Shown here piece after piece: positions 22,622 through 61,272 of a DNA stretch of 64,000 nt (position 1 is the first letter of the stretch; each line of letters opens with the position of its first letter). Origin of the DNA: Octopus sinensis (Eukaryota); the NCBI RefSeq assembly GCF_006345805.1, contig NC_043017.1, positions 6,386,001 through 6,450,000 on the forward strand, given 5' to 3'. The notes under the pieces are model-generated. The model was given only the letters and a program-made list of their open reading frames with translations. It was not told where the DNA came from and did no database searches. Both the position numbers and the translations under genes were made by a program.

Positions 22622-25612
22622 TGTCAGCTGTTGGTGAAGGCTTTGGGAGATTAACTGGAGTGACGACAATAATGGGGAGATGGACGTCCCAGTTAATCAT
22701 TTAAACCACCTTGAAAGATTAAAAAGATTTTTAAAAAAAACATCACAGAAATAGAATTGTTTAATCTGATGAAAATAGATATAAATGAAGATAATGATAA
22801 GAGTGATGATGATGATGATGATGATCATTGTTATCAGCATTTAATGTTTGCTTTCCATGCTGGCATGGGTTGGATGATTTGATAGGAGCTGAAAAGCGGA
22901 TCAGGCCCCAGTTGCCTGTTTTGGCAGGGTTTCTATGGCTGGATGCCCTTCCTAATGCCAACCACTTTACAGAGTGGACTGGGTTACCATTACATGAAAC
23001 TGACACAAATACTCATTATGTGGCACCAGCACAGATGCTCAATATATGACACTGGTATGAGTGCTTCCTATGTGGCACAGCAGGAGTGCACTTGTACACG
23101 GTACCGCCACAAGAGCTTTGGTACATGACACCAGCATGAGTACTTCTGTACGTGGCACCGACATGAATGCTTCTTACATGGAAACGGCACAGCTGCTTTC
23201 ACCCATAGCACCAGCAGGAGTGCTTCTGTATGTGGCACCAGCACTAGTGCTTTTAACATATGCTTCTTTATTACCCACAAGGGGCTAAACATAGAGGGAA
23301 CAAACAAGGACAGTCAAACGGATTAAGTCGATTACATCGACCCCAGTGTGCAACTGGTACTTAATTTATCGACTCCGAAAGGATGAAAGGCAAAGTCGAC
23401 CTCAGCAGAATTTGAACTCAGAACGTAACAGCAGACGAAATACCTATTTCTTTATTACCTACAAGGGGCTAAACATAGAGGGAACAAACAAGGACAGTCA
23501 AACGGATTAAGTCGATTACATCGACCCCAGTATGCAACTGGTACTTAATTTATCGACCCCGAAAGGATGAAAGGCAAAGTCAACCTCGGCAGAATTTGAA
23601 CTCAGAACGTAACGGCAGACGAAATACCTATTTCTTCACTACCCACAAGGGGCTAAACATAGAGGGGACAAACAAGGACAGACAAACGGATTAAGTTGAT
23701 TACATCGACCCCAGTGCGCAACTGGTACTTAATTTATCGACCCCGAAAGGATGAAAGGCAAAGTCGACCTCAGCAGAATTTGAACTCAGAACATAACGAC
23801 AGACGAAATACGGCTACGCATTTCACCCGGTGTGCTAACGTTAACATAGCAATGGTACTAGAGCTTTTTAAATGGCCCTGATATGAATGCTTTCCATGTG
23901 GTACCAGCACAATAATGATGGCAACGGTAATGGAGAGAATGATAATGAGGATTAATGTTATCAAATGCAGAAATTATGGTATGGAATCATAAAACTGTTT
24001 TGCTGACCAATCAATGCTGAGCATTGGTGTTGGTATAAGGCATTTTCTTTAAATGACCGTCATTAAATATCTCCACACATTACAGTTTTTTGTTGTTTGT
24101 TCCTTCTCAAGCCATGCCTGGCTCAAAAGGGCCAGTTTCCCGGTTTCTTGGCGTATAGGTTCCCCACCTGGACGGGATGCCGGTCCATCACAGGTGAGCT
24201 GCAAGATGGAGGAGCAAAGAGTGAGCAGAAGTTCGCCATTACCTTCTGCCAGAGCCGCGTAGGTGTTTTGCTCATAAACACACACATCGTCCGGTCTGAG
24301 ATTCGAACCCGCGATCCCTCGACCACGAGTTCACTGCTCTAACCACTAGGCCATGTGCCTCCACTCACATTACAGTGGCCATCTTCATCCTTCACTGGAC
24401 CACCAAACTATCTCTCCTCATGCATTCTCTCTACTCCTGAAGCCTACCCCAAACACATCATCTCCTTTTTCCCTGCAGTCAACAGTATCGTAACAACCTT
24501 ACTGCTCCAACCTCAACTTGTGCAACCCCTCCCCAATCCTTATAAATGTTGTTCATCTCCCTCCCCCATCTCTTGCACTAACACATACTTATAGTGGCTT
24601 TCAGATGAGGTGGGTAGGGCCGGCTCCAATCACCAAGTTATGTTTGGGGTTTTAGTGGGATTACAAATTCACAAGAAGTCCCTGGCCACATACATACACA
24701 CTTTCAGATAGTGTGGTCCATAGCAGCTAATCTTGCTATCTATTGTCAACCATCTTAGAGGATTTGCGGAGCAAGTCACCACTGATTATCAAATAGGTGT
24801 AGCCTGGGCTTGAAGCAGATTCTTGAGACATGCTTTAACAAAAGCTAAGAAGTGCTTCACTCCCTATGCTTTTCTCTTATGCTGGACACCAGCCCAGACT
24901 TTCTGAAGGCACTCTTCAACTTCCCTCTTTTTCTCTCTCACCTTATACAAACCCCTGCTTACCCCACCCCTACAGATCCTGCTACTTGTGGCCCCACACG
25001 GACACCTTATTACCACTGTCTATCTCTTTGGATATAGTTCTAATTCATTTTCAATTTCTCTCTTAAATGCGGGTAGCCAAGAAACTCTTCTACAATAAGA
25101 ACCTGCTCCACCCCAGCACCTTCCTGCATACCTTAAACCCCCAACTAACACACACAGGCAACATCCTCCCTCCTTGACATTGCTTTGTTAATCTGTGAGC
25201 TACATGGAGAACTCAAAAACACTGGTGGCACAAAAAAAAAAAACAAGCACCCAGAACACCCTGTAAAGTGGATGGCATTACAAAGGGCATAAGGGCATCC
25301 AGTCATTGCACACCATATCCAAACAGACAGACACTGGAGCATGATGGGGTCTTTCAACTCATTGGATCTTTGTCCGGACATCCAGCCCTTGTCAGCATGG
25401 AACTCGGACATATTACTCTCTTTTACTTGTTTCAGTCATTTGACTGCGGCCATGCTGGAGCACCACCTTTAGCCGAGGACTTATTCTTTGTAAGCCTAGT
25501 ACTTATTCTATCGGTCTCTTTTGCTGAACTGCTAAGCTACGGGGACGTAAACACACCACCATCGGTTGTCAAACGATGTTGGGGGTACAAACACAAAAAC
25601 ACAAACACGGGG

Positions 25613-29830: not shown

Positions 29831-29914
29831 ATGGCGCTGTCATCGTTGGAAATCTCTGATCTAGAAAGCAGGCGATCTTTATACGATATTGAAAGAAGTA
29901 GATTTGGAGAAGGT
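29831..29914 (+). CDS. TEX47: TEX47/DYBLUP-like BLUF-fold protein, exon 1
   Basis: aaATGG start, MALSSLEISDLESRRSLYDIERSRFGEG, donor |GTAAGT, phase 0. Confidence 0.8.
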
Positions 29915-30525
29915 GTAAGTATAAACATACGCTGGGTACTGATATATTTGTGATACCTACGTTCTGAGTTCGAATGCTACCGTGGTTGAATTTGTTTTTT
30001 TTTGTTTTTTTTCTTTTATCCTTTCGGGGTCTATAAAATAGGTACCAGTTGATCACTAGGATCGATGTAACGGAGTAGCCCCTATTTCCCAAAATTTTAG
30101 GCCTTGTGCCTTCGACACGAAAGGAACCGTTAGCACGCTGGTCCGGCTTTACGTTCTGAGTTCAAACTCCGCCGAGGTCGACTTTGCTTTTAATCCGTTC
30201 GGGGCCTATGAAATAAATACCATTCAAGTACTGGGATCGTTGAACAAGCCTCATCCCTCAGAATTTCAAATCTTGTTCTTATACTAGAAAGGATTAATGT
30301 TATGGTATTATTGAGATAATTTATATAGGGGTATAATGGTATTTTAACTGTGGAAATAGGAAAATTTGAGTGTGAAGAATAATTCCCATTTATGAATGGA
30401 CAAACGACTGAATTTTTCTCTCATTCTTCGTTATCACTTACTTGTCTCAGTCATTGGACTGCGGCCATGCTGGGGCAGCACCTTGAAGGGTTTTAGTCTA
30501 ACAAATGGTCCCCGGGACTTATTTT

Positions 30526-30945
30526 GGATCTTTTCGGTTTGACCGACAGTTTTTAAAAATAATTTCCACGTAACTAAACACTTTTAAACTTCGTATACTG
30601 GTAGAATGTGTTTATAAAACATCTTTTTCTCTTGGCTTTATTGAGAAAATTCTATAGTTTGTAAGATATTTGTTGTTTTTCTTCTGCAATTTTTGCAATT
30701 TCAACCAATCAGTGACGTCTATTGAGGTGAAAACATTCTGTGCCGTATGAATATGTCCCTCGTTTAAGAAACAAATTGGGTTTATTTACATTTGTGAAGA
30801 AAAAAGATACCCTTCCCCCCACCCCTAACCCTAACTAACCCTAAAACAGATTGAAATGCAATAGATTGATACTAGAGTCATAATTATGGGTGACAATTTC
30901 ATATGACACCGCAAGAAAAAAATGCCGTTCAAACCGAAAAGATCC
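30526..30945. mobile_element. MITE, same family in opposite orientation, 8-bp TSD
   Basis: TIRs as above, flanked by CTTATTTT on both sides, inserted in a decayed SINE. Superfamily (Merlin or Mutator-like) not resolved. Confidence 0.9.
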
Positions 30946-32157
30946 CTTATTTTTATAAGTCTGGTACTCAGTCTCTTTTGCTGAACTGCTGACTTATCGG
31001 GGACAGAAACAAACCTATACCGGTTGTCAAGCAGTAGTGGTGATTGAGAATAAATACAGACTCAAAGGTGACACACAGACATATATTTACACACATAGGA
31101 TGTGGTTCTACACAGTTTCTCTCCACCAAATTCACTCAGAAGGCTTCGGTCAGTCAGGTTCTGTGCAGTAGGATTGAACCAGAAACCACATTGTTGTAGA
31201 GAGACCTCCCTAACGACTCAGCCATGCCTGTGCATACACATTTTATTATTAATTCTCAAGATGGCCAGCTTGCAGAATCATGAACATGTCATGGTGCAGG
31301 AGTGGCTGTGTGGTAAGTAGCTTGCTAACCAACCACATGGTTCCGGGTTCAGTCCCACCGCGTGGCATCTTGGGCAAGTGTCTTCTGCTATAGCCCCGGG
31401 TCGACCAATGCCTTGTGAGTGGATTTGGTAGACGTAAACTGAAAGAAGCCTGTCGTATATATGTATGTCTGTGTATATGTTTGTGTGTCTGTGTTTGTCC
31501 CCCTAGCATTGCTTGACAACCGATGCTGGTGTGTTTACGTCCCCGTCACTTAGCAGTTCGGCAAAAGAGACCGATAGAATAAGTACTGGGCTTACAAAAG
31601 AATAAGTCCCAGGGTCGATTTGCTCGACTAAAGGCAGTGCTCCAGCATGGCTGCAGTCAAATGACTGAAACAAGTAAAAGAGTATGTCAGGCAAAATCAT
31701 GAACAACATTTCATCCAACTTTACGTTCTGAGTTCAAATTCTGCCAAGATCGACTTTACCTTTCTTCCTTTCGGGGTCGATAAATTAAGTACCAGTTGTA
31801 TACAGAGGGTTGATGTAATCAACTATTCCCCTTTCCTTGAAATTGCTGGCCTTGTGTCAACATTCGATAAATTAAGTACCAGTTGTATACGGAGGGTTGA
31901 TGTAATCAACTATTCCCCTTTCCTTGAAATTGCTGGCCTTGTGTCAACATTCGAAACTATTATTATAATTATTGTTATTATTCTGTTTCGGGGTTTTTTT
32001 TTTACATCTCTGTAACTTAGCGGTTCAGCAAAGGTGAGCAACAGAATAAGTACTAGGCTCTGGGGTTGAAAAAGAATAAATTCTGCAGTTGATTTGATTG
32101 ACTAAAGGTGGTGCTCCAGCATGGCCACAGTCAAATGACAGAAACAAGTAAAATAAT

Positions 32158-32213
<56 letters not shown>

Positions 32214-32583
32214 CTCTCCTTGGACACATGCGATCATATAGATTTCCAACTTAGAGGATAATGGAGTATCCTGTATGCTAGAAATCTATGTGGTTGTATG
32301 CACGTGAGGAAAGCGGTTTATTTCAAATTGATGTAATGTTTGCATTGATCAATTAAAGGGAGCTGCTTTAAATGGCCACAATGCACTGATACCTGGACAT
32401 CCTTCTTACTTATTTTTTTTCTAATTCATATATATATATATATATATATATATACTTTATTTAAAGCAGCAGAAAATTCAACAAAACCTGTTACTCTGAG
32501 TTTCACCTTTTATCAATTCAACAAGGAAAAAATTAAATTATACCATATAGAAAAAAAATGACATATATTCGTTTTATTTATTA

Positions 32584-32975
32584 CTAGCAGTATCGCCCAG
32601 CATTGCTCGGGTTTGTAAGGGAAATAACTATATAAGCATTTTTAGAGAGTTATAGCCAAAAAATAGCAAAAAAATGCATTAAAAATGGAAAAAAAATGTT
32701 GTTAATTTTTAAATCGTTGACTCATCGTAGACATTTTTAGAGAGTTACTTCCCTTATATAATAGCGAAAAAATGCATTAAAATGGAAAAAAATGATGGTA
32801 AATTTTTTTAAAATCGTAGACTCATCGTAGACGCGCGCTAATACCCAGAAGGGCTCGATATGAATCACGACTATAAGATACCCGATTTTGGTTAAACTGC
32901 ATCGCAAAATGTGGGAGTAGTTAGGAATCTAAATCGTAGGAGACAGACACACAACTTTAGTTTTATATATAAAGA
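32584..32975 (-). mobile_element. non-autonomous Helitron
   Basis: Minus-strand A|TC 5' end, CCCGAGCAATGCTGGGCG hairpin and CTAG|T; 3' module shared with 11333-11690. Confidence 0.83.
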
Positions 32976-33495
32976 TTTTGCATATTACTTAATCATTATT
33001 ATATGTTTTTATCTTATATTTAATATTTTCTATAGGATGTAATTTCTTTCTATATGGTATAATTTAATTTTTTCATTGTTGAATTGATAAAAGGTGTTTT
33101 TTTTCTAATTCATATATATATATATATATTATATTTTGTGAAATTTGATTTAGTATTTCTAAATTGAATTTTTCCCTGTAAGTTTGAAATAATATTCCCT
33201 AATATTATTATTATTATTATTATTATAATAATATATATATATACATACACCTTGGGCTTCTAGTTTCCATCTACCAAATCTACACACAGGTCTTTGGTTC
33301 AGCCTGAGAATATGGCAGAAGACATTTTCCCAGAACCATGGTTTCTGGGACTGAACCCAGAACCATGTGCTTGGGAAGCAAACTTCTTGCCACACAGCCA
33401 CATATGTGCCTTTATTAGTATTTCTTATCAAGGATATGGATGGCTGAATCAGGGAAAATCTGGAAAAAAAATATAGTGACTTCTTGTCACCCTTA

Positions 33496-36400
33496 CCCTG
33501 TTGCAGTCCAGCCCCTCTGTTTCATCCCCTAATTTCCTCCTGCACCTTGCTGGCAAGGTTTCACGTTTCCTTTGTCTCTGTTGCAGTCCAGCCCCTCTGT
33601 TTCATCCCCCTAATTTCCTCCTTGCACCTTGCTGGCAAGGTTTCACGTTTCCTTTGTCTCTGTTGCAGTCAGCCCCCTGTTTTCATCCCCTAATTTCCTC
33701 CTTGCACCTTGCGGCGAAGGTTTCACGTTTCTTTGTCTCTGTTGCAGTCCAGCCCTTTTTTTTCATCCCCTAATTTCCTCCTTGCACCTTGCTGGAAAAG
33801 TTTCACGTTCCTTTGTCTCTGTTGCAGTCCAGCCCCTCTGTTTCATCCCCTAATTTGCTCCTTGCACTTGCTGGCGAAGGTTTCACGTTTCCTTTGTCTC
33901 TGTTGCAGTCCAGCCCCTCTGTTTCATCCCCTAATTTGCTCCTTGCACCTTGCTGGCGAAGGTTTCACGTTTCCTTGTCTCTGTTGCAGTCCAGCCCCTC
34001 TGTTTCATCCCCTAATTTCCTCCTTGCACCTTGCTGGCGAAGGTTTCACGTTTCCTCTTTGTCCCTGTTGCAGTCCAGCCCCTCTGTTTCATCCCCTAAT
34101 TTCCTCCTTGCACCTTGCTGGCGAAGGTTTCACGTTTCCTTTGTCTCTGTTGCAGTCCAGCCCCTCTGTTTCATCCCCTAATTTCCTCCTTGCACCTTGC
34201 TGGTGAAGGTTTCACGTTTCCTTTGTCTCTGTTGCAGTCAAGCCCCTCTGTTTCATCCCCTAATTTCCTCCTTGCACCTTGCTGGCGAAGGTTTCATTTC
34301 GCCCGTTTCCTTGGTCTCTGTGCAGTCCAGCCCCTCTGTTTCATCCCCTAATTTCCTCCTTGCACCTTGCTGGCGAAGGTTTCACGTTTCCTTTGTCTCT
34401 GTTGCAGTCCAGCCCCCTGTTTCCATCCCTAATTTCCTCCTTGCACCTTGCTGGTGAAGGTTTCACGTTTCCTTTGTCTCTGTTGCAGTCCAGCCCCTCT
34501 GTTCATCTAATTTCCTCCTTGAACCTTGCTGGCGAAGGTTTCACGTTTCCTTTGTCTCTGTTGCAGTCCAGCCCCTCTGTTTCATCCCCTAATTTCCTCC
34601 TCCTGCACCTTGCTGGTGAAGGTTTCACGTTTCCTTTGTCTCTGTTGCAGGCCAGCCCCTCTGTTTCATTCCCTTAATTTCCTCCTTGCACCTGCTGGCG
34701 AAGGTTTCACGTTTCCTTTGTCTCTGTTGCAGTCCAGCCCCTCTGTTTCATCCCCCTAATTTCCTCCTTGCACCTTGCTGGCGAAGGTTTCACGTTTCCT
34801 TTGTCTCTGTTGCAGTCCAGCCCCTCTGTTTCATCCCCTAATTTCCTCCTTGCACCTTGCTGGCGAAGGTTTCACGTTTCCTTTGTCTCTGTTGCAGTCC
34901 AGCCCTCTGTTTCATCCCCTAATTTCCTCCTTGCACCTTGCTGGCGAAGGTTTCACGTTTCCTTTTGTCTGTTGCAGTCCAGCCCCTCTGTTTCATCTCC
35001 CCTAATTTCCTCCTTGCACCTTGCTTGGCGAAGGTTTCCACGTTTCCTTGTCTCTGTTGCAGCCAGCCCCTCTGTTTCATCCCTAATTTCCTCCTTGCAC
35101 CTTGCTGGCGAAGGTTTCACGTTTCCTTTGTCCTCTGTTGCAGTCCAGCCCCTCTGTTTCATCCCCATAATTTCCTCCTTGCACCTTGCTGGCGAAGGTT
35201 TCACGTTTCCTTTGTCTCTGTTGCAGTCCAGCCCCTCTGTTTCAATCCCCTAATTTGCTCCTTGCACCTTGCTGGCGAGGTTTCACGTTTCCTTTGTCTT
35301 TCTGTCTGTGCAGTCCAGCCCCTCTGTTTCATCCCCTAATTTCCTCCTTGCACCTGCTGGCGAAGGAAGGTTCACGTTTCCTTTGTCTCTGTTGCAGTCC
35401 AGCCCCTCTGTTTCATCCCCTAATTTGCTCCTTGCACCTTGCTGGCGAAGGTTTCACGTTTCCTTTGTCTCTGTTGCAGGCCAGCCCCTCTGTTTCATCC
35501 CCTAATTTCCTCCTTGCACCTTGCTGGCGAAGGTTTCACGTTTCCTTTGTCTCTGTTGCAGGCCAGCCCCTCTGTTTCATCCCCTAATTTCCTCCTTGCA
35601 CCTTGCTGGCGAAGGTTTCACGTTTCCTTTGTCTCTGTTGCAGGCCAGCCCCTCTGTTTCATCCCCTAATTCCTCCTTGCCTTGCTGGCGAAGGTTTCAC
35701 GTTTCCTTTGTCTCTGTTGCGGCCAGCCCCTCTGTTTCATCCCCTAATTCTCCTTGCACCTTGCTGGCGAAGGTTCACGTTCCTTTGTCTCTGTTGCAGG
35801 CCAGCCCCTCTGTTATCCCCCTAATTTGCTCCTTGCACCTTGCTGGCGAAGGTTTCACGTTCCTTTGTCTCTGTTGCAGGCCAGCCCCTCTGTTTCATCC
35901 CCTAATTTCCTCCTTGCACCTTGCTGGCGAAGGTTTCACGTTCCTTTGTCTCTGTTGCAGGCCAGCCCCTCTGTTTCATCCCCTAATTTGCTCCTTGCAC
36001 CTTGCTGGCGAAGGTTTCACGTTTCCTTTGTCTCTGTTGCAGTCCAGCCCCTCTGTTTCATCCCCTAATTTTCCCTTGCACCTTGCTGGTGAAGGTTTTC
36101 ACGTTTCTTTGTCTCTGTGCAGGCCAGCCCCTCTGTTTCATCCCCTAATTTCTCCTTGCACCTTGCTGGCGAGGTTTCACGTTTCCTTTGTCTCTGTTGC
36201 AGTCCAGCCCCTTGTTTCATCCCCTAATTTCCTCCTTGCACCTTGCTGGCGAAGGTTTCACGTTTCCTTTGTCTCTGTTGCAGTCCAGCCCCTCTGTTTC
36301 ATCACATCCCTAATTTCCTCCTTGCACCTTGCTGGCGAAGGTTTCACGTTTCCTTTGTCTCTGTTGCAGTCCAGCCCTCTGTTTCATCCCCTAATTTCCT

Positions 36401-39127
36401 CCTTGCACCTTGCTGGCGAAGGTTTCACGTTTCCTTTGTCTCTGTTGCAGTCCAGCCCCTCTGTTTCATCCCCTAATTTCCTCCTTGCACCTTGCTGGCG
36501 AAGGTTTCACGTTTCCTTTGGTCTCTGTTGCAGGTCCAGCCCCTCTGTTTCATCCCCTAATTCCTCCTTGCACCTTGCTGGCGAAGGTTTCACGTTTCCT
36601 TTGTCTCTGTTGCAGTCCAGCCCCTCTGTTTCATCCCCTAATTCCTCCTTGCACCTTGTGGCGAAGGTTTCACGTTTCCTTTGTCTCTGTTGCAGACAGC
36701 CCCTCTGTTTCATCCCCTAATTTCCTCCTTGCACCTTGCTGGCGAAGGTTTCACGTTTCCTTGTCTCTGTTGCAGTCCAGCCCCTCTCTGTTCATCCCCT
36801 AATTCCTCCTTGCACCTGCTGGCGAAGGTTTCACGTTTCTTTGTCTCTGTTGCAGTCAGCCCCTCTGTTTCATCCCCTAATTTGCTCCTTGCACCTTGCT
36901 GGCGAAGGTTTCACGTTTCCTTTGTCTCTGTTGCAGTCCAGCCACTCTGTTTTCATCCCCTAATTTCCTCCTTGCACCTTGCTGGCGAAGGTTTCACGTC
37001 CTGTGTCTCTGTTGCAGCCAGCCCCTCTGTTTCATACCCTAATTTCTCCTTGCACCTTGCTGGCGAAGGTTTCACGTTTCCTTTGTCTCTGTTGCAGGCC
37101 AGCCCCTCTGTTTCATCCCCTAATTTCCTCCTTGCACCTTGCTGGCGAAGGTTTCACGTTTCCTTGTCTCTGTTGCAGTCCAGCCCCTCTGTTTCATCCC
37201 CTAATTTCCTCTTGCACCTTGCTGGCGAAGGTTTCACGTTTCCTTTGTCTCTGTTGCAGTCCAGCCCCTCTGTTTCATCCCCTAATTCCTCCTTGCACCT
37301 TGCTGGCGAAGGTTCACGTTTCTTTGTCTGTTGCAGGCCAGCCCCTCTGTTTCATCCCCTAATTTCCTCCTTGCACCTTGCTGGCGAAGGTTTCACGTTT
37401 CCTTTGTCTCTGTTGCAGGCCAGCCCCTCTGTTTCATCCCCTAATTTCCTCCTTGCACCTTGCTGGCGAAGGTTTCACGTTTCCTTTGTCTCTGTTGCAG
37501 GCCAGCCCCTCTGTTTATCCCCTAATTTCCTCCTTGCAACTGCGCTTAAACGTTTCCTTTGTCTCTGTTGCAGTCCACCCTCTGTTTCATCCCCTAATTT
37601 CTCCTTGCCCTGCTGGCGAAGGTTTCACGTTTCCTTGTCTCTGTTGCAGTCCAGCCCTCTGTTTCATCCCCTAATTTCCTCCTTGCACCTTGCTGGCGAA
37701 GGTTTCACGTTTCCTTTGTCTCTGTTGCAGTCCAGCCCCTCTGTTTCATCCCCTAATTTCCTCCTTGCACCTTGCTGGCGAAGGTTTCACGTTTCCTTTG
37801 TCTCTGTTGCAGTCCAGCCCCTCTGTTTCATCCCCTAATTTCCTCCTTGCACCTTGCTGGCGAAGGTTTCACGTTTCCTTTGTCTCTGTTGCAGGCCAGC
37901 CCCTCTGTTTCATCCCCTAATTTCCTCCTTGCACCTTGCTGGCGAAGGTTTCACGTTTCCTTTGTCTCTGTTGCAGTCCAGCCCCTCTGTTTCATCCCCT
38001 AATTTCCTCCTTGCACCTTGCTGGCGAAGGTTTCACGTTTCCTTTGTCTCTGTTGCAGTCCAGCCCCTCTGTTTCATCCCCTAATTTCCTCCTTGCACCT
38101 TGCTGGCGAAGGTTTCACGTTTCCTTTGTCTCTGTTGCAGGCCAGCCCCTCTGTTTCATCCCCTAATTTGCTCCTTGCACCTTGCTGGCGAAGGTTTCAC
38201 GTTTCCTTTGTCTCTGTTGCAGTCCAGCCCCTCTGTTTCATCCCCTAATTTGCTCCTTGCACCTTGCTGGCGAAGGTTTCACGTTTCCTTTGTCTCTGTT
38301 GCAGTCCAGCCCTCTGTTTCATCCCCTAATTTCCTCCTTGCACCTTGCTGGCGAAGGTTTCACGTTTCCTTTGTCTCTGTTGCAGTCCAGCCCCTCTGTT
38401 TCATCCCTAATTTCCTCCTTGCACCTTGCTGGCGAAGGTTTCACGTTTCCTTTGTCTCTGTTGCAGTCCAGCCCTCTGTTTCATCCCCTAATTTCCTCCT
38501 TGCACCTTGCTGGCGAAGGTTTCACGTTTCCTTTGTCTCTGTTGCAGGCCAGCCCCTCTGTTTCATCCCCTAATTTGCTCCTTGCACCTTGCTGGCGAAG
38601 GTTTCACGTTTCCTTTGTCTCTGTTGCAGTCCAGCCCCTCTGTTTCATCCCCTAATTTGCTCCTTGCACCTTGCTGGCGAAGGTTTCACGTTTCCTTTGT
38701 CTCTGTTGCAGTCCAGCCCCTCTGTTTCATCCCCTAATTTCCTCCTTGCACCTTGCTGGCGAAGGTTTCACGTTTCCTTTGTCTCTGTTGCAGTCCAGCC
38801 CCTCTGTTTCATCCCCTAATTTCCTCCTTGCACCTTGCTGGCGAAGGTTTCACGTTTCCTTTGTCTCTGTTGCAGTCCAGCCCCTCTGTTTCATCCCCTA
38901 ATTTCCTCCTTGCACCTTGCTGGCGAAGGTTTCACGTTTCCTTGTCTCTGTTGCAGTCCAGCCCCTCTGTTTCATCCCTAATTTCCTCCTTGCACACTTG
39001 CTGGCGAAGGTTTCACGTTTCCTTTGTCTCTGTTGCAGTCCAGCCCCTCTGTTTCATCCCCTAATTTCCTCCTTGCACCTTGCTGGCGAAGGTTTCACGT
39101 TTCCTTTGTCTCTGTTGCAGGCCAGCC
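33496..39127 (+). repeat. 82-bp tandem array (~68 copies) in TEX47-like intron 1
   Basis: Unit TCCAGCCCCTCTGTTTCATCCCCTAATTTCCTCCTTGCACCTTGCTGGCGAAGGTTTCACGTTTCCTTTGTCTCTGTTGCAG. The 82-nt period is visible in the ORF start spacing (37690, 37772, 37854...). Confidence 0.97.
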
Positions 39128-39193
39128 TTGTTCACCGTTTGATCTACATTGGGAACATAAAGAACAGGTCAGAAGAACCATCAGTAGTTCTCA
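39121..39193 (+). CDS. TEX47: TEX47-like exon 2
   Basis: Acceptor tttcctttgtctctgttgcag| supplied by the last unit of the 82-bp array; ASLVHRLIYIGNIKNRSEEPSVVL; donor A|GTAAGT. Compare TEX47 FLLHRMFLVA and BLUF beta1 LxxLIYxS. Confidence 0.85.
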
Positions 39194-42315: not shown

Positions 42316-42416
42316 GTCAGCTGCAAGAAGACATTCTATATTTAAGAGAAAAAGAAGGGGAGATCATTTCTGGTCTCCTCGTGATGTACCAGGTGCAGTT
42401 CTTTGTTGTACTGGAG
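42316..42416 (+). CDS. TEX47: TEX47-like exon 3
   Basis: tttcttaacag|, (S)QLQEDILYLREKEGEIISGLLVMYQVQFFVVLE, |GTAGGT. Compare TEX47 [20 protein letters not shown]. Confidence 0.88.
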
Positions 42417-44443: not shown

Positions 44444-44542
44444 TCATCGGAGAAATACATATCAGCCTTAATACAGCACCTCAAGTCTGCCATTGGTGGA
44501 AAACTAATCAAACGAGTGAAGTTGCTCGTTATGTCTCATGAT
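44444..44542 (+). CDS. TEX47: TEX47-like exon 4
   Basis: catttcacag|, SSEKYISALIQHLKSAIGGKLIKRVKLLVMSHD, then U12 donor GTATCCTTT. Compare TEX47 SSSDTL...MKIIVISHN. Confidence 0.88.
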
Positions 44543-45433
44543 GTATCCTTTGTATATTGCTGTGTATGTAATTCATTATACTGCAGCTTCATAACTGGCT
44601 ACTGCTGGTTCAATTTCTAGGTTGACTCAATTTCGTCTCTCTCCAGACACACACACATGCACGAGCTCACACACACACACACACACACACACGCACGCAT
44701 ACATACACATTGAGAAAATACAAATAAAAATGCATACAGAATTTTATCAAAAAACAGAAAGACAGTATTTATAATTCTAACTAAGCAGCTACCGGTTTTA
44801 ATTGCTGTCAGGTAATCTAGTCATGCTCAAAGAGAAAATAAACTGGATTAAATTAAATTAAATTTATATTAATCTCTCAAAATATCTGTTATAGACGTTC
44901 ACATTTTCTTCTTATAAAGATCACTTGATGGTTTATTTCCTTTCCTTCTAATTGTTGCTAGTGACCAGTTAATGATAGTGGAGGGGGATGGCTTAGTGGT
45001 TCGGGCGTTGCACTCATGATCATAAGATTCTTGAGCAAAAAGACTTCATTTCATGTTGTTACAGTCCACACAGCTGGTAAGAATGAGTAATGCTGCAATG
45101 TAATGGTGTCCCACCCGGGTATGCAGAACATGTAGACCAGAGAAACAAGTAAACCAGCTCTATGCTCTTTATGAAGTAATACAGACTGACCAATGTATGT
45201 ATAAATATATATACTTAAATGCATATACTCTTTTACTCTTTTACTTGTTTCAGTCATTTGACTGTGGCCATGCTGGAGCACTGCCTTTAGTCAAGCAAAT
45301 CGACCCCAGGACTTATTCTTTGTAAGCCCAGTACTTATTCTATGGGTCTCTTTTGCCGAACCACTAAGTGACGGGGATGTAAACACACCAGCATCAGTTG
45401 TCAGGCAATGCTAGGGGGACAAACACAGACACA

Positions 45434-45491
<58 letters not shown>

Positions 45492-45751
45492 CGCTTCTTT
45501 CAGTTTCTGTCTACCAAATCCACTCACAAGGCATTGGTCGGCCCGGGGCTATAGCAGAAGACACTTGCCCAAGATGCCACGCAGTGGGACTGAACCTGGA
45601 ACCATGTGGTTGGTTAGCAAGCTACTTACCACACAGCCACTTCTGCACCTATATATATATATGTGCTAGCATGGAAAGCGGATGCTAAACGATGATGATG
45701 ATATATATATATATACTTAAGTACATATATACACACACACACATATATACA

Positions 45752-45782
<31 letters not shown>

Positions 45783-46185
45783 GTAGTAAAGAAATAGGAT
45801 TATCCAGTCCAAGTGAAGCCATACTCAGTAAATAATTGTAGTCACGAATATTGTTCAGAAGCATGTGATCTCATAGATTAGCATCATAGTACTTAGCTAT
45901 TAATTCTGGGGGCTTCTTTTGTCTGTGGAACTTTGTCATTGCCACAGCAGAGGGTAGTTTTCTCAGCACAACTAAGGTCAGCTTTGCAGTCAAGGCATGT
46001 TCTGTTAAAAATGTTTCGCAGGAGTGGCTGTGTGGTAAGTAGCTTGCTAACCAACCACATGGTTCCGGGTTCAGTCCCACTGTGTGGCATCTTGGGCAAG
46101 TGCCTTCTGCTATAGCCCCGGGCCGACCAATGCCTTGTGAGTGGATTTGGTAGACGGAAACTGAAATAAGCCTGTCGTATATATG

Positions 46186-46218
<33 letters not shown>

Positions 46219-46599
46219 TTGTGTGTCTGTGTTTGTCCCCCTAGCATTGCTTGACAACCGATGCTGGTGTGTTTACGTCCTCATCACTTAGCGGTTCGGC
46301 AAAAGGGACCGATAGAATAAGTACTGGGCTTACAAAAAATAAGTCCCGGGGTCGATTTGCTTGACTAAAGGCGGTGCTCCAGCATGGCCGCAGTCAAATG
46401 ACTGAAACAAGTAAAAGAGTAAAAGATTAAAGAGAGTGGTGCAACATAGGATTTGGGTTTCGTTGTTTCTGATGAAAATCTGCCACATCGACTTCCATGG
46501 CCATTCTCTCAGTGTCAGTTCTTTACTGACGAAGTCTCGATTGCTATCGTGCCTGGGTTGTTTGCTTGTCGCTGCTGAATTAGTGGCAGCGACGTGTCT

Positions 46600-46960
46600 T
46601 GCCTAAAGTCTTGTTTCCTCAGCTGACCAGTATTCCTTCGTGCTTCTGTGTCTTGTGGTGTTTCCATGGCATGGATTTCCTGTGTTCTTAACTGATTCGC
46701 ATTTCACTGTGCTTCTGTTTTTACTGGTCTTTCCATTGCACAGGTTTCCTGTGTTCTCATCCAATTCCCACACCTCCGTGCTTCTGAATCTGTTGGTCTT
46801 TCCATTGCACAGGTTTCCTGTGTTCTCATCCAATTCCCACACCTCCGTGCTTCTGAATCTTTTGGTCTTTCCATTGCACGGGTTTCCTGTCTCCTCAGCC
46901 AATCTGCATGTCTCTGTGCCTCTGCTTCTTCTAGTGTTTCCATTGCACAGATTTCTTACA
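46600..46960. repeat. 63-bp tandem repeat (~5 units)
   Basis: TTTCCATTGCACAGGTTTCCTGTGTTCTCA... units; 21-aa period in the ORF track. Confidence 0.85.
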
Positions 46961-47743
46961 TTCTCCTTTGCTTTATTTCGAGACTTGTCTGTTTTCTTCA
47001 ATTAGCGTCTGTTGTCTTTGCACATGACAATTATCCAGCAAAAGTTTTGAGACGATTCAGCTAGTATTTGAGCTAATTTCTCTGAACGGGAAGTTTCCAC
47101 GGTATTAATTGTAACTATTTACCTTGGGTATTTATTTACAATTACACCATTGTCGCTAAACACTATCTTAAAGTGCGCCTTTTATCTCGTTGAATTGCTC
47201 TAAGCGAATTTGACCATAAAAATTTCAGAAATTTAGTATTTTTTAGGTAATTATAAAATTAGTCAAACCCATTTTCATGCAATTAAATGTGTAAAGTTCC
47301 TGACATTTTCATACTTTTTGCGCCTGCTATTTCAGAATTCTACGCATACGTGAAACATCAGCTGAAAGTACATTCAATAATGTATTCATACATGCAACGG
47401 CGTAAAGAGGCATAACAGTAGCTCCGACGGCATGAAAATAGGTCTGACAAATTTTATTAATATCTTAAGAAATACTAAATTTCCAACATTTCGAACACTA
47501 AATTTCCAAATTCGTTTAGAGAAATTCAATAACATAAAAATCGACCAGCTTATGGAAAATGGCTTCCAGGCCAGGTTCCAAAAGTGGCAGGAATGCTAGG
47601 AATGGTGTGTTTCTGTACAAGGAGGCTATTTTTATGGAAATACTGTTAAAACTTGGGTGAATAAGTTATTTTTTATTAAACCTAACTAGTCCAGGATCAT
47701 TTTGATACCACCTCATATTTGGTGTGTGTGTGTGGTGTCTGTA

Positions 47744-47774
<31 letters not shown>

Positions 47775-49219
47775 ATATTTATATATAATATATATATTAT
47801 ATATATATATATTATATATATTATTTAAACTCACATGAGTTCAAAAAGGCTTGACACTTCCTGATTGCTCTGATGTCAGTGCACCTAATTAATTAATGAC
47901 AGTTATATCCGATGAAGGAGAACCAGTTTGACAACATTAATTACATTATTGCAAATGAATTATTCTTAATTAATATCATGATTGCTCTCCTGATGTATCC
48001 CTTTAGAGGTATGATATCTTAGTCATATTCTATTTGCTTGTTAATACCTCTATCAGATGCATGCCTTTTATACTTATCACTTAGGATATTAATAAATGAG
48101 GCTGTGCTGAAAATTCCTGGCTTTCGGTAACAGAAAGTACAGGAGGATCAGTTAATTATGATTTTATTCAACATTTTTCCCTCCCAGATTCACGCCCTCA
48201 TTGCCCATCCTTCAGCTTTTCTGAGCCCTGTAAATGAAGTTGAAATGTTTGTCCTCCAACCAGACCTTTTACGATACTCTTTTCAGCAACCCCTTGTAAT
48301 ATAACTGTGTATGGAACAATTCATAGATTGGCAAATAGGAACAACAGCTTGGTTAAAAAGTTTGTCACACAGCCACATAATTTTGATGTATGTTACCTTA
48401 ATTAATTATGTTGCAGCATCATCTTTGGGTTGCTTTAATTCCTCTGATCTGATGATCTTGCATCCTTTATTTGCTTGGATTTGTGAATATACAATTTTTT
48501 TTGTATAATGTCAAACATGTATATTACTGCAAACATGTAAGTATAATTTCTACCACAGTATAATGAATACTACATGAAGAAGGTTATGAAACAGCTGTAA
48601 TCCTAAAAACGTCATGTAATTAAATAAATATATATTCACCACTCATACCTGCTGACTTTTGGAGTCAAACCAAATAGAGATATTTTGAAATTACTTAAAT
48701 GATTTATGTATTAAATGATTTAAAAATCATTTAATGTATAAATGTTTGTTGTGTTCTTGAGCAAGACACTTTATTTCATGTTGCTCCTGTTTCCTCAGCT
48801 GTAAAAATGAGTTGCAACATCACTGATGTGAAGCTGTATCAGCCTTGCCTTTCCCTTGGATAACATCAGTGGCATGGAGAGAGGAGGCTGGTATGCATGG
48901 GCAGTTGCTGGTCTTCTGTAAAACAACCTTGCCTGGACTTGTGCCTAGGAAGGACACTTTCTAGGTGCGATCCCAAAGGGGTCTTTACTTTTTACTCCTT
49001 ATTGATTTCAAAATATCTTTATTTGGTTTGACCTCATTCTTACAACTTATTATGACTTGATAACGGTAAAAAAATCACCAATCAAGACCCCACATATATG
49101 GATTTTCTAACATAGAATCAGAGGAGTTTGTTATATTTTGACTCAAGTCAAAAACTTCTAGTTACTCTGCCTTGCTTATTAGCATAACACAATATTATAT
49201 ATATATATACATATATATC

Positions 49220-49255
<36 letters not shown>

Positions 49256-49689
49256 ATATTATATATATATGAAAAAACAAGTCAAAATAGAAAATGCTAA
49301 AATACTTTTATAAAGAACATGTTCTTTATAAAATTATTTAGCATTTTCTATTTTGACTTGTTTTTTCATATATATCAACTCGTTGGTTCCTTTCATCCCT
49401 GTGTTTAATATATATATATAATATATATTAGTATATATAATATATATACCGATAAGAAAAACACATAAATGTGAAACAAGGTGGTGAAAAAAGAGTACTC
49501 AAATACCAGTGATAGAGTAATATGGTTTATTTAAAGCAGCAGAACATTCACTTTAAAGTGAGGCCACAGGAATTCAGCAACAATAATTTCTTTTATTCTT
49601 TTTAAAAGTGTGGCAAATTGTATTGGGGTTGCCTTTCCCTTGGATATATATATATCATCCGATGTGTGCGTTCGCCAGCCTCATCTGGC

Positions 49690-50376
49690 CCTGTGTCGGT
49701 GGCACATAAATAAAAAAAAAAAAAAAAAAAAAACACCATCCGAAGACCCGCAAGACTATTCAGGCCATAACCCGTGGCCCTACCTGGGACGTAGTCAGTC
49801 ACCTGTGCATACCTTCCTTCTTGTGAACTTGTGAATGACCTGTTGAGGCAAGTGAAATCAAATCATATCAATCAAAACAAATCAAACAAAGATGACATAG
49901 ATGGAATTTGTATCTTTGTTGTACCCAGTGGCGGTGGCCCACAAGAAAATCATCCGAACGTGGCCGTAGCCAGTACCGCATAACTGGCTCGTGCTTTGGG
50001 GACGTAACACCACCATCCGATCGTGGCCGTCCGCCATGCCTCATCTGCACCTGGGTCGGTGTTTCGGTGGCACATAAAAACACCATCCGAGCGTGGCCGT
50101 CTGCCAGCCTCGTCTGGCACCTGTGTCGGTGGCACATAAAAACACCATCCGAGCGTGGCCGTTCGCCAGCCTCGTCTGGCACCTGTGTCGGTGGCACATA
50201 AAATCACCCACTACAAACTCTCGAGTGTTGGCGTTAGGAAGGGCATCCAGCTGTAGAAACACTGCCAGATCTGACTGCCTGTGCAGCCTTCGGCTCCCCA
50301 GACCCCCAGTATAACCGTCCAACCCATGCTAGCATGGAAAACGACGCTAAATGATGATGATGATGATGATGATGAT
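49690..50376 (+). mobile_element. retroelement family C with GGAAGGGCATCCAGC motif, internal tandem units and (GAT)n tail
   Basis: Ends CCATGCTAGCATGGAAA..(GAT)n. Related copies at 1955-2250, 2472-2740, 15866-16180, 16340-16610 and 22803-23260. Confidence 0.7.
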
Positions 50377-50582
50377 TATAAATATATATATCTTATATAT
50401 ATATATATATGTATATATATGTATATTATTACATACATACACATTTTTTTAATGTTGCACAGGACCCGCTTTAAGTGAACTTTAAAGTGAGGCACAGGAA
50501 ATCACAGCAACAATAATTTCTTTTATTCTTTTTAAGTGTGGTAAATTGTATGGGGTGTTGTGCCTTCCCTTGAATATAGATA

Positions 50583-50641
<59 letters not shown>

Positions 50642-50864
50642 TATATATATATACATACATACACATTTTTTAAGTGTTGCACAGGAACCCGCTTTAAAGT
50701 GAACTTTAAAGTGAGGCACAGGAAATTCAGCAACAATAATTTCTTTTATTCTTTTTAAGTGTGGCAAATTGTTGCCTTTCCCTTGGATAACACTGGTGGC
50801 ATGGAGAGGGGAGGCCGGTGTGCATGGGCCACAGCTGGTCTTCCATAATCAACCTTGTCCAGAC

Positions 50865-53800
50865 TTAGTTAGTTAGTTAATTTTTTGACTCAAAAAGCAA
50901 AAAGGCAAGGCCATGTAGGGGGACATGAAGTTATGTACAGGGTGGTGTTCATGTAAAGAGTTCACGCCACTTGTGGTCAAGGGAGACTTTGAACCGAGCG
51001 GTCGTCGGCATCTTCACCATCTCGTCTGGCAGCTTATTCCACGGATCCGCAACCCGGACGGAGAAAGCCCCTCTCCTTCGATTGAGATGAAATCGTCGCA
51101 GATAGAGCTTTTTGGATTGACCCCACAGCTGACGCTCTGGAGCAGGAGTGAAGAACAGCTCCTTCGAGAGGTTACACTTTCCGCTTATGATGTTGTGAGC
51201 AAGAATGAGATCACCACGGCGTCGTCGTTTTTCTAGAGAATAAAGGTCGAGCGTCTTCAGCCTTTCTTCATAAGACAATTCTTGAGACCAAGAACCATGG
51301 GGTAGCCAGCTTCTGGACTCTTTCGAGATGCTGTATGTCTTGAGGAGATAAGGAGAAGAGGCTTGAATCCGTACTCCAATATGGGTCTCACCAGCGTGAC
51401 ATAGAGCGGTAGGAATATGGCTGCTGTGAGCATTTCAAATGACCGTCGAATCAAGAACAGAACTCCGCGTGCCTTGTTGGCAGCATGGACGCACTGGGCT
51501 GAAGGCGAAAAGGAGGAATCCACCAAGATACCCAGGTCCTTTACCTGATCGGTCCTCTCCAGCAGCAGACGACCGGCTCGAAATCAAGTTGAGTTGCAGG
51601 AGGGAGGCCAACAGGCAGATGACAGCACTTTGACACGTTCAGACACAGGTCCCATTCGCTAGACCATCTCCAAATTTGGTGGAGGCATCGACGAAGATCC
51701 TCTATATCACCGCGAGGAGCGACCAGTTTCACATCGTTGGCAAATAGAAGGGTGTGTTGCGTGAGGTCGTCGGGCAAGTCATTTATGAAAACTAAGAACA
51801 ATAAGGGCCCAAGCACTGAACCTTGAGGCACGCCACTGCTCGCATTGGAGACATCGGACCGCGAACCATTAACTTGGACTTGGAAGGAGCGATCTGAGAG
51901 GAAGGCACCAACCCATCGAACAATATCCGGATGGAAACTATATGCTTGAAGCTTGACAAGTAATAGGCGGTGGTTTACCGAGTCAAAAGCTTTGGCAAAG
52001 TCCAATAAAACGATGTCAACAGCATCACTATCATCGAGGATGCGCGTCACCAATTCTTTCATTACCAGTAAGTTGGTCAAGCATGATCTCTTCGGCACGA
52101 AGCCGTGTTGGGAATCAGAGATAGAGGCTGTGTTTTGGAGGTGGAGCATCATACTTTTCTTAAGGATGGTTTCGGACATCTTGCTGATTATTGATGTAAG
52201 GGAAACCGGTCGGTAGTTAAGCGGGTCTTCGCGGCTCCCTTTCTTGAAAATTGGGCAGATTATCGCTGTTCTCCAGTCCGCAGGTATAACACCCGTCGCC
52301 AATGACATATTAAATAGACGTGTTAAGGGCTCGCAGATGACCGGAGCCAACGCTTTGATAACCCGTGGGTGTATGCCGTCAGGGCCGTGACCCTTGTTGA
52401 CATCGAGGCCTTGAATAACGCGTTCGACTTCGTCCCGCGTGATGACCAATCGAAGCATTGGAAGTACCGATCTATCAAATGGAGGGGGTTCACGACCATC
52501 ATCTTGTTTGAAAATAGTTGAAAAAGCCTCGGCAAATAATTGACTCTGTTGATAAGGGTCCTCAATCGTTATGCCTCTTGAGTCAACCAACGTTGTAATT
52601 TGGTTGTTCAAGCGGGAATTCCGTTGGACATGGGCAAAGAAAGCTTTTGGATTGCTACTGGCGTTTGCCGCGATTCTGTATTCATATCTGAAGCGTTCTT
52701 CCTTTTCAATTTTCACGGCTCGGTCTCGTTGAGTTTCGTACACCTCAAAAGCTGCAGTCGAATCCAGAGTTTTGAATTCAGCCCAAGCAATATCTCTGAG
52801 TCTAAGTTCTCGTTTAACCTTCTTCGTCACCCAGGGCTTGTGTTTCTTCTTCTTGGGAAGCCCAACGAGAACTGCTTGGTCAGTCAACCAGATTACATAT
52901 GCTTTGAGGGACGACCATAGTTTGTCAACTGAGGACAACGTCATCAGGGATCGCCAGTCCAGAAGCGCGGAAGCCTCGGTTAGAATTTCAAGATTAATTG
53001 CAGAGAAGACTCTACGTGGCAGCGAAGTAGTCGTGGGCGCAGAAAAAGTGGAGTGCATGACGAACTTCAGGACCGCATGATCACTCTTGGCAAGAGGGGC
53101 GCTCACAGATACGTCTGACACTGATCTTGGATAGCAGGAGAATACCAGATCCAGCATAGATGGCTGCTGCCCAGACCGATGCCCTGTCGGATATTCGACA
53201 TGTTGCGATAGAAAACAATCTTCAGCCACGTCAAGAAGGGCCTGACCGAACCGGGAAGATGATGTACAAATTGATGCGGGCCAATCGATCGTGGGAGCGT
53301 TGAAGTCTCCTAATATCAAACAGTCATTAGAAGCTGAAACGAATATTATCGCTTCGAGTAAATGAGCATCCTCCTGGGGGTCGGTAAGAGGCGGCCTGTA
53401 GACAGCTAACACGGGCAGGCAAAACCCGGATAGGCTCAGCTTGCAATAGACGGCATCGGATTTTGTTGTAGGTTGAGCATTAGTGGGTAGAATACCGCTG
53501 GACGGTTTGAGATCAGATTTAACATACACAGCAACACCTCCACCGCGTCTTTTTTCTCTGTCACATCTGAAGAGGGCGTAGCCTTGTAGGTGGATTTCCG
53601 AGTCCTTTACTGCTGGAATTAGCCAAGTCTCGGTGATCGCTATCACATCAGGGGAATCACGCATGGCCAGTGTAAATAGTTCGCTGAACTTTGGAAATAA
53701 GGAGCACGAGTTGGTATAGACGATGCTGAGCTGTGAAATTTGAGGGGTGGGAGTTGGGGAACAAGCAGAATAAGGGGTATCAGAGATAGCATCGTTGACG

Positions 53801-54219
53801 GGGGTATCTACTTTACTTCAATTCGCCCTCGATTCACTTTCCCTGCGACCAGAGGTAGGACTTGATTATTTGTCCATCTTGGATGCGTAAACCCTTCTCT
53901 CCCATTTGTTTTCTCATCTTCAGTACGGATATTAGGTTTCTCCGGCGAATTCTCTCTCTCAGTGAGTATTCCTCGCGAAAACCCATATTGGGGTCCTCCC
54001 AGGCATGCATCTGAGCTCTGTTCAGAAAGGTTGAAGCCTCCTGATCGGAAGAAAAGATTACTCTTATTGGGCGTGGTCTAGTGTCTGAGGTTGAGTTCGC
54101 TTGGAAACTTCCTAGCCGAGCGACCTTATGGATACTGACCTTATGGATACTTGTGCCTGGGAGGGTAATTTTTCTAGATGCAATCCCACGGCCAGTCATG
54201 ACCGAAGTGGGTCTCAGCA
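50865..54219 (-). mobile_element. CR1/L2-group LINE, 5'-truncated, inactive
   Basis: ORF1 remnant (RPRPIRVIF); ORF2 with APE endonuclease (ITETWL, GDFN, SDH) and RT (LDFAKAFDSV, GVPQGSVLGPLLF). Catalytic FADD is mutated to FAND, the C-terminus (FSVRVADPWNKLP) is frameshifted, and there is a (TAAC)n tail. Confidence 0.93.
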
Positions 54220-54230
54220 ATATATATATG

Positions 54231-54303
<73 letters not shown>

Positions 54304-55112
54304 TATACATATATACATATATACGATACAACCTCAAGACAACGAATAAGTAAAGAAAATCTCTTTATTACAAAATACAAGCCACTTCTAAACGGGTCTA
54401 CGACAAACAATTAATATACCTCAACTTTAGAATAAAAGAAATATATATACACACACAAATATTACACTCCATAGAATCCATTACTAATCAGCCCCTTCAT
54501 AGCTATACTTACACCCATTCATATTCTCCTCCTCTGTTTTTTTTCTTCTTCTTCTTCTTCCTCTTCTTCTTCATCATCATCATTATCATCATCATCGTCG
54601 TCATCATCATCACCACCATCATCACCACCATCTTCTCCTTCTCCTCCTCCTTCTTCTTCTCATCATTATCATCATCATCGTCATAATCATCACCACCATC
54701 ACCATCATCGTCATCTTCTCCTTCTCCTCTTCTTCTTCTCTTCTTCTTCTTCTTCTCTTCTACTTCTCCCCTACCCCTTAACTTTGTCACTAATGTTTTT
54801 TAGTATAACACCTACGCTAATTCTATAAACAAGCCTGTCAATATAATATTCTCCTGAATTGAACTGAGACTGCCAGCCGCCACTGACCATTCAAAATACG
54901 ACCATCAGGGCACTCCCAGATTCTCCCACCCCCCTTTCCTCACCAGCCTTCTTCCTCTACTACCCTACCAAGAACTCACAACGACCTCCGACACACAAGT
55001 GCAAACAAGGAGTCAGAGAAAGGCAGAATGCCACTTAAATCTGAACACTACTATAGAAATATTCTTTTAAAAAAACTTTTCTTCTAATTTTTCTAAATTT
55101 AATTATTTAATC

Positions 55113-55158
55113 GTTACAGTTGAAAAGGTCTCAAAATGACCGAAACCGGTACTGAAAT
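55113..55158 (+). ncRNA. minimal type I hammerhead ribozyme (Penelope-like element type, U3-A8 core)
   Basis: CAG-TTGAAAA-GGTC(tcaaaat)GACC-GAAA-CCGG-TA-CTG: stem I CAG/CTG, 4-bp stem II, palindromic minimal stem III, GUA cleavage triplet. Confidence 0.65.
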
Positions 55159-55203
55159 GTTCACTATAAAATTATTTTAGCATTTTCTATTTTTGACTTG
55201 TTT

Positions 55204-55268
<65 letters not shown>

Positions 55269-55459
55269 CATAGTTAATAAACATGAAGAACAAACACAAA
55301 AAAACAACAATGTGAAGTTTTAGCAGACGCTCAGTGAAGGAAAGAAATGTGGTTTTGCATTTCAAACAAAACTCTGCTTCAGAAATAGGTGAAAGTACAA
55401 TAGAAAAGGAAGATGAAGGGGGGGAAAAACGCCAACGATTCACATGTGGTGGCATTTTG

Positions 55460-55490
<31 letters not shown>

Positions 55491-55946
55491 GGAGTGGCTG
55501 TGTGGTAAGTAGCTTGCTAACCAGCCACATGGTTCCGGGTTCAGTCACACTGCGTGGCATCTTGGGCAAGTGTCTTCTACTATAGCCTCGGGCCGACCAA
55601 TGCCTTGTGAGTGGATTTGGTAGACGGAAACTGAAAGAAGCCTGTCGTATATATGTATATATATATATGTATGTGTGTTTGTTTGTGTGTCTGTGTTTGT
55701 CCCCCTAGCATTGCTTGACAACCCATGCTGGTGTGTTTATGTCCCCGTTACTTAGCGGTTCGGCAAAAGAGACCGATAGAATAAGTACTGGGCTTACAAA
55801 AAGAATAAGTCCCGGGGTCTAGTTGATCGATTAAAGGCGGTGCTCCAGCATGGCCGCAGTCAAATGACTGAAACAAGTAAAAGAGATATCGTGTTTGTAT
55901 TTGGTTTGCAAGATTATTTATCTGAATGCAAAAGGTCTTGGCCATT

Positions 55947-56317: not shown

Positions 56318-56473
56318 GTGTTCCGCTTATTCAGACAAATGCATTTCTGTCTCCTGGACATCCATTCTCAGAACATGGAGGTTTTCGAAACTTTGGACAC
56401 TATTGAGAAACTGCAAGTTGACCTCATTCAGCAGATCCTTCTTCTGGGAGCCCACCTAAACCAACAACATAAG
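56318..56473 (+). CDS. TEX47: TEX47-like exon 5
   Basis: VFRLFRQMHFCLLDIHSQNMEVFETLDTIEKLQVDLIQQILLLGAHLNQQHK, donor AAG|GTAAGT. Compare TEX47 PMRLFMQWH...KLSLYLCQ. Confidence 0.85.
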
Positions 56474-61208: not shown

Positions 61209-61272
61209 GGTGACTTTCAGAGAGTTCTTGAAACAATGAGTACAAGAAACCCAGCACTACTTCCCCAACAAG
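61209..61272 (+). CDS. TEX47: TEX47-like exon 6
   Basis: ttctcattgcag|, GDFQRVLETMSTRNPALLPQQ, G|GTAAGC. Compare TEX47 DNLHQVAPDLLLPEQ. Confidence 0.85.

Follow-up and report, generated by a model that had tools for sequence, protein, structure and literature searches.

Which of its own 3' splice sites does a gene use when an intron ends in a long tandem array of near-copies of that site, how does such an array arise, and does it matter to the gene? These questions are raised by intron 1 of a gene in a 64,000-nucleotide stretch of the Octopus sinensis genome (assembly GCF_006345805.1, contig NC_043017.1, positions 6,386,001 to 6,450,000 of the forward strand), hereafter called the window. The answer that we consider probable is as follows: the array is a minisatellite confined to this locus; the transcripts seen are spliced to its last copy; its growth from a single unit, through slippage or unequal exchange, was likely recent; and it is likely removed with the intron without having a regulatory role.

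The host gene is TEX47/DYBLUP. Its fifth exon matches the Pfam family TEX47 (PF24787) with 30 bits against a cut-off of 25, and a protein search with this exon identified two proteins among 10 candidates, namely P0002 (Octopus vulgaris and O. sinensis), whose cluster also includes two O. bimaculoides isoforms, and P0003 (Argonauta). The seven exons found in the window give residues 1-225 of P0002 without a stop, and the eighth lies just outside the window. TEX47/DYBLUP has one match in the genome. TEX47 (C7orf62) is homologous to DYBLUP, which has a BLUF domain and belongs to the f/I1 inner-arm dynein as one of its subunits; DYBLUP is a dynein-associated blue-light sensor of sperm flagella, with a function demonstrated in Ciona and Chlamydomonas (PMC7909887, available part). 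By analogy, octopus TEX47 may have the same function. An earlier reading made from the letters alone (the sequence-only reading) had called the host a ciliary gene, and the Pfam match and the orthologous proteins agree with it. The gene is laid out as follows.

29831..29914, plus strand: coding exon 1, from the ATG to the donor (GTAAGT at 29915), located by tblastn of P0002; its end is joined to 39121 in three runs
29915..39120, plus strand: intron 1, 9206 nt; it would be 3674 nt if only one unit of the array were present
39121..39193, plus strand: exon 2 (73 nt), purine-rich, with a strong GTAAGT donor
42316..42416, plus strand: exon 3, located by tblastn of P0002 and by spliced contigs
44444..44542, plus strand: exon 4, followed by a U12-type donor
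56318..56473, plus strand: exon 5, with the Pfam TEX47 match above the cut-off
61209..61272, plus strand: exon 6, located by tblastn of P0002
63893..63991, plus strand: exon 7; exon 8 follows past the window end, from L011:1911 onward

Tandem Repeats Finder detected the minisatellite at 33498-39127, with a period of 82, 69.2 copies and 94% matches. It makes up 5.6 kb of intron 1, which is 9.2 kb long, and ends on the exon-2 acceptor. The parts of the array and its surroundings that are needed below are listed here.

33469..33497, plus strand: 5' flank of the array, unique, pyrimidine-rich and without AG for 28 nt before the first CAG
33498..39127, plus strand: 82-bp minisatellite, 69 units plus 16 nt, with 68 intact decoy acceptors and one broken
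33498..33513, plus strand: upstream copy of a 16-nt direct repeat, spanning the acceptor, with T at +1 and 15/16 identity to 39112-39127
39039..39120, plus strand: last unit, with CTAAT (A at -57), AAG/GT (-30), the candidate branch TTTCAC (A at -24), a pyrimidine tract and the used CAG
39112..39127, plus strand: downstream copy of the 16-nt direct repeat, comprising the authentic acceptor and the first 7 nt of exon 2, with G at +1

Splitting of the array at the acceptor motif yielded 70 junctions, 69 with an intact TGCAG and one, at 35721, without the A. The junctions delimit 69 units and provide 68 intact decoy acceptors in addition to the real acceptor at 39120. Each unit consists of 75 intronic and 7 exonic nt, a boundary confirmed by the protein match and by spliced contigs. 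The sequence-only reading, which had described about 68 tandem 82-bp copies ending on the exon-2 acceptor, each an amplified end of the intron together with the first 7 nt of exon 2, was therefore correct in both respects, the count being 69. The unit tail that it quoted is the exact end of 47 of the 69 units; CTAAT is present in 67 units and GAAGGTTTCA in 58. The first letter of the unit is T in 49 units, G in 17 (T-type and G-type below), C in 2 and A in 1. The context of the real acceptor out to +7 is found in 17 of the 69 units. The copies had also been taken for equal acceptors, which they are not, because 52 of the 69 units lack a G at +1. At window position 36534, the CAG of one unit is followed by G as well as T; this is probably an artefact of the consensus, which mixes the two junction types. 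Furthermore, a weak sub-period of 40-42 bp inside the 82-bp unit was detected at 34127-35999 (53-56% matches, Tandem Repeats Finder), possibly a trace of an older internal duplication.

Does the genome really contain 69 copies? When units were compared, deletions accounted for 86 bases and insertions for 42, versus 52 substitutions, and the indel bases number 13 in the last 19 units versus 115 in the first 50. Because indel-dominated differences look like long-read error, a variant confined to one unit, or the exact reading frame within the array, should not be relied on. The dominance of indels and their fall in the last 19 units, as in poorly polished long reads, together with the one unit that starts with both G and T, could be explained if long-read assembly had inflated or created the copy number and the true allele had few units. 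However, read error on a single unit would hardly produce the three recurrent substitution sites (unit position 1 in 16 units, position 30 in 11 and position 49 in 4) or the clusters of G-type units (8 adjacent pairs, p = 0.011), which look as they would in the turnover of a true minisatellite; in addition, both flanks are unique and collinear with a contig from a relative (run X16, described below). Creation or inflation of the array by assembly is thus very unlikely, and we treat the minisatellite as genuine.

The 82-bp unit has one candidate place in the genome, versus 30 candidate places for a control, the dispersed repeat of intron 4, in the same search. A genome-wide satellite, which would have been unrelated to this acceptor and had been raised as a possibility beforehand, was thereby rejected. 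As for size, 12 blocks of 50 kb, hand-placed on 12 contigs and comprising 599,600 non-N bases, contained 17 complex minisatellites that passed our filter, of which two reached 500 bp and none (0/17) reached 1 kb; arrays of this length are uncommon in these sampled blocks. An acceptor-like motif was present on one strand in three of the eight sampled minisatellites with a period of at least 40. Such motifs are therefore common in repeats, and size is what makes the array stand out. Elsewhere in the window, a common dispersed repeat is present as three copies of 184 bp in tandem at 23264-23811, and an array of four 185-bp copies with a similar consensus was found in the sampled blocks.

Which acceptor is used was examined in 4 of 24 sequence runs, which were compared with the last unit and exon 2; all 24 are assembled contigs, which drop rare isoforms, so that low-level use of upstream acceptors, or its loss to nonsense-mediated decay, could go unseen. 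None of the 24 is recorded as RNA; runs X8, X9 and X11, from three studies, are counted as RNA because their contigs are spliced. Each yielded one contig covering 39121-39195 (depths 301.5, 21 and 6.9, respectively), and all three contigs have the end of exon 1 before 39121 and the start of exon 3 after exon 2; the exon 2 sequence at the junction with exon 1 is GCCAGCCTT. These joins indicate that the last AG is used and that exon 2 is included. The CAG of the last unit had been proposed as the real acceptor, and the spliced contigs of the three studies confirm this; use of another acceptor for exon 2, or absence of splicing, was not what they revealed. A further outcome foreseen by the sequence-only reading, neutral slippage with use of the last AG only, agrees with the spliced contigs as far as the AG is concerned. 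Normal mRNA from the authentic copy was thus obtained in 3 of 3 RNA-like runs, from animals whose array alleles may differ from that of the window and may not have 69 units. No unit-bearing contig was seen in X8, X9 or X11, which we do not count as evidence because contigs drop rare variants.

What sets the last AG apart? It is 73 nt from the exon-2 donor, versus 155, 237, 318, 400 and 482 nt for the next decoys and 646 nt for the nearest G-type decoy. Exon definition acts over roughly 300 nt, and the contest would therefore be among about three sites, not 68. The purine fraction after the AG is 0.55 at the real site, with four GAA, and at most 0.33 at the decoys. The array contains no GT(A/G)AG, and the best intronic donor match has two of the four letters. 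Each unit was previously described as having a weak donor-like motif, GAAG/GTTTCA, that would define 53-nt pseudo-exons; this motif has none of the four consensus letters at +3 to +6, versus three or four in the six U2-type donors of the gene that were tested. On standard exon definition, the last AG would win by virtue of the strong donor 73 nt away, the purine-rich exon and the G at +1, and the decoys would find no donor in the array with which to pair.

Two further ideas about the decoys were discarded. RNA structure that hides the decoys was rejected because the predicted folding of three units does not surpass that of shuffled sequences (z = -0.41); the AG, the tract and the branch of the real site are also predicted to be about as accessible as those of the last six decoys. 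That the last six units are T-type is no evidence for selection of weak decoys beside the exon, since six in a row has a chance of approximately 0.18 with 17 G in 69. Regarding the branch, CTAAT had been noted as a branch-like motif. It does occur in nearly all units, as given above, but it is unlikely to serve as the branch for the CAG of its unit because its A is at -57 and an AG (-31/-30) lies between the two; branch-to-acceptor distances are quoted as 19-37 nt (PMC10078293, available part). TTTCAC, with its A at -24, fits better and may be the branch.

The array could alternatively provide recursive splice sites, or pseudo-exons of 53 nt, that serve as a ladder for the stepwise removal of intron 1, as the sequence-only reading had suggested, and an AAG/GT located 27 nt past CTAAT in most units (AGGT in 67/69) is what such a ladder might use. 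However, a recursive site calls for AG/GT, and GT directly follows the CAG in only 1 of 69 units; the AAG/GTTTCA donor is the one that has 0/4 at +3 to +6. Moreover, intron 1 without the array would be 3.7 kb, so that no stepwise removal is called for. With no usable donor or recursive site in the array, we regard a ladder as extremely improbable.

A smaller state of the locus was recovered from run X16, from a differently labelled organism, which contains 0.60 of the exon-1 words. It provided one contig of 225 nt (depth 3.8) that consists of the array 5' flank, one unit and then 12 nt of exon 2. The flank has one difference in 30 letters, and 39030-39132 is matched with 3 other letters in 103. 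If a second unit followed instead of exon 2, 5-6 differences (4-5 of the 12 positions plus a change at 39087) would be needed, versus the 3 seen. The contig is a single record of depth 3.8, and its 12 nt of exon 2 are fewer than the 31 letters required for a bridge; a related organism with one unit thus appears to exist, on good but not final evidence. The order flank, one unit and exon 2 in X16 suggests that expansion to 69 copies was probably recent. The single-copy ancestral state that had been proposed for a relative is in this way matched by one low-depth contig, but the single unit could be the product of a collapse instead.

A second indication comes from O. bimaculoides, whose isoform X2 (P0004, XP_014779515.1) starts with MRPLSLLQ followed by ASLV, eight residues replacing exon 1. 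When read in frame, the end of the unit gives PLSLLQ and the end of the flank gives TLTLLQ. Because the start of X2 matches the unit and not the flank, O. bimaculoides would have at least one unit, judging from the protein, and at least one unit would then be older than the split from that species. The X2 RefSeq model also implies transcript evidence upstream of this acceptor in O. bimaculoides.

The ends of the array suggest how the units arose. They carry the same 16-mer across the acceptor, identical at 15 of 16 positions, and the single difference is the T or G at +1 that is also the main variant among units. The 16-mer had no match with two or fewer mismatches in 1,316,680 other positions, and within approximately 300 nt upstream of the five other acceptors of the gene, the best 16-mer match was only 8-11/16; therefore, the repeat is not due to chance. 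An acceptor-spanning 16-nt sequence is thus present twice, 82 nt apart per unit, and at both ends of the array, and the X16 contig, albeit a single one of low depth, appears to represent flank, one unit and exon 2. Starting from such a state, misalignment between the two 16-mers may have begun tandem growth, in which exchange before or after their single difference would have given T-type or G-type junctions. A pyrimidine tract and 28 nt free of AG precede the 5'-most junction as well, and for this reason the one-unit state may itself be the result of a 66-nt insertion. The insertion, with duplication of the 16-mer, would have made the first unit; the 5'-most junction may then be an older acceptor, and the flank at 33469-33497 is a candidate ancestral intron end.

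Candidate sources of the 66-nt spacer were compared with shuffled sequences. Descent by decay from exon 2 or from the 5' flank was rejected, since 40-63% of 2000 shuffles score as well. A piece of the dispersed 69-bp-repeat element of intron 4 was likewise rejected (best window score 35, versus a mean of 33.5 and a maximum of 42 for shuffles), and a profile of 21 copies of this element had no match to the spacer. No source of the 66 nt was thus found among exon 2, the flank and the intron 4 element, and the sequence occurs at one place in the genome.

The array belongs to a known class, the amphioxus 'mirage', a minisatellite that spans an intron-exon boundary: the repeats are of minisatellite size and head to tail, the authentic boundary and its splice signal are repeated, and the array is locus-specific. 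Mirages have been described in amphioxus Adh3, troponin C, the globins BflGb6 and BflGb9, and PGBD5, and in the available parts of these papers they are considered harmless to splicing, those of Adh, troponin C and PGBD5 likewise (PMC3087553, PMC3902484). As in the octopus, they are minisatellite-like tandem copies of the boundary with splice signals inside, and normal mRNA is made. The closest is BflGb6, in which the 3' end of an intron and the start of exon 2 are repeated and haplotypes differ, with 6 versus 3 copies (PMC3087553). The octopus array has 69 copies versus 3-6 in BflGb6, and only 7 nt of its unit are exonic. It also leaves the one-unit state and the seeding 16-nt repeat visible, whereas the accessible text of the amphioxus globin paper calls the mechanism unclear (PMC3087553). 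What is new here is a large cephalopod case with a one-unit precursor in view; a literature search, largely without subscription papers, found no cephalopod mirage.

Human genes provide partial parallels, here as described in the available parts of the cited papers. In CBS 844ins68, the last 52 nt of an intron and the first 16 nt of an exon are duplicated, and, as in the octopus, splicing goes to the downstream acceptor and removes the upstream copy (PMC7490669); unlike the octopus array, it has two copies and no minisatellite. The 37-bp VNTR of F7 intron 7 is, like the octopus array, a minisatellite across a splice boundary with silent, identical pseudo-sites; the copy beside the exon is used, and the locus already serves as a model of splice-site choice (PMC1557585), but it is on the donor side and has few copies. 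The 25-bp VNTR of ABCA7 intron 18 resembles the octopus array in being long and in repeating the splice site in every unit, and a transcript spliced at the next unit is out of frame (PMC5954066). It differs in being on the donor side and in that a length-linked change in splicing has been demonstrated (PMC5954066).

This last case raises the question of whether the length of the octopus array controls the gene. More units might lead to use of upstream acceptors or to slower removal of the intron, and hence to nonsense-mediated decay (NMD) and a lower dose of TEX47/DYBLUP. In silico, all 68 intact upstream acceptors, when paired with the exon-2 donor, lead to a premature stop (67 within the array and 1 in exon 4). 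A frameshift or a premature stop had been predicted from the letters: the stop is correct for 68/68, but every third acceptor is in frame as far as length goes, and there it is a TAA, not a frameshift, that ends translation. The 17 of 69 units that match the context of the real acceptor to +7, the O. bimaculoides RefSeq model that begins in the intron end, and the one-unit-retained, out-of-frame isoform and length-linked splicing of the ABCA7 VNTR (PMC5954066, available part) also speak for such control. However, any intronic sequence would be expected to bring in premature stops, and the closest G-type decoy is 646 nt away from the exon-2 donor. In the three studies, every junction recovered from exon 1 leads to the last AG, including that in the contig with a depth of 301.5, and the relative appears to manage with one unit. 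Length-tunable control is accordingly unlikely in our judgement. The decoy bank and the copy-number-tuned alternative splicing with NMD put forward by the sequence-only reading are not supported either, given the last AG in the spliced contigs, the apparent single unit of the relative and the description of the class in print as not disturbing splicing. Also quite unlikely is a combined scheme in which a mirage born by a 66-nt insertion that duplicated the acceptor and displaced the old one, and then amplified 69-fold, acts as a polymorphic rheostat that sets the NMD share of DYBLUP transcripts in sperm or ciliated cells.

As a locus-specific minisatellite that the gene tolerates, and one of a described class, the array changes little. 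Its value lies elsewhere: the single-unit state, together with the 16-nt direct repeat, hints at how boundary repeats begin, and alleles with one versus 69 acceptors would be a natural contrast for studying the choice of 3' splice sites, matching on the acceptor side what the F7 model offers for donors. Were TEX47/DYBLUP tuned by array length, a minisatellite would be linked to a dynein-associated blue-light sensor of sperm flagella, assuming that the function carries over to the octopus.

Other features were observed in introns 4 and 5. Intron 4 (44543-56317) is a GT-AG intron with the donor GTATCCTTT, CCTTAAC near its 3' end and an AG without a preceding pyrimidine tract, and on these consensus motifs we take it to be a U12-type (minor spliceosome) intron. 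Within it, at approximately 46435-47290, is a dispersed element whose interior carries 69-bp tandem repeats (46635-46955). For this element the genome has at least 30 candidate places, with approximately 72-89% identity; its units carry an acceptor-like CAG/GT away from any exon and are unrelated to the 82-bp unit. On the minus strand of the same intron, a long coding-like stretch at approximately 50950-53900 resembles, by eye, a LINE-type retroelement. In intron 5, fragments at approximately 57740-59400 resemble, again by eye, a Helitron/PIF1-type helicase gene.
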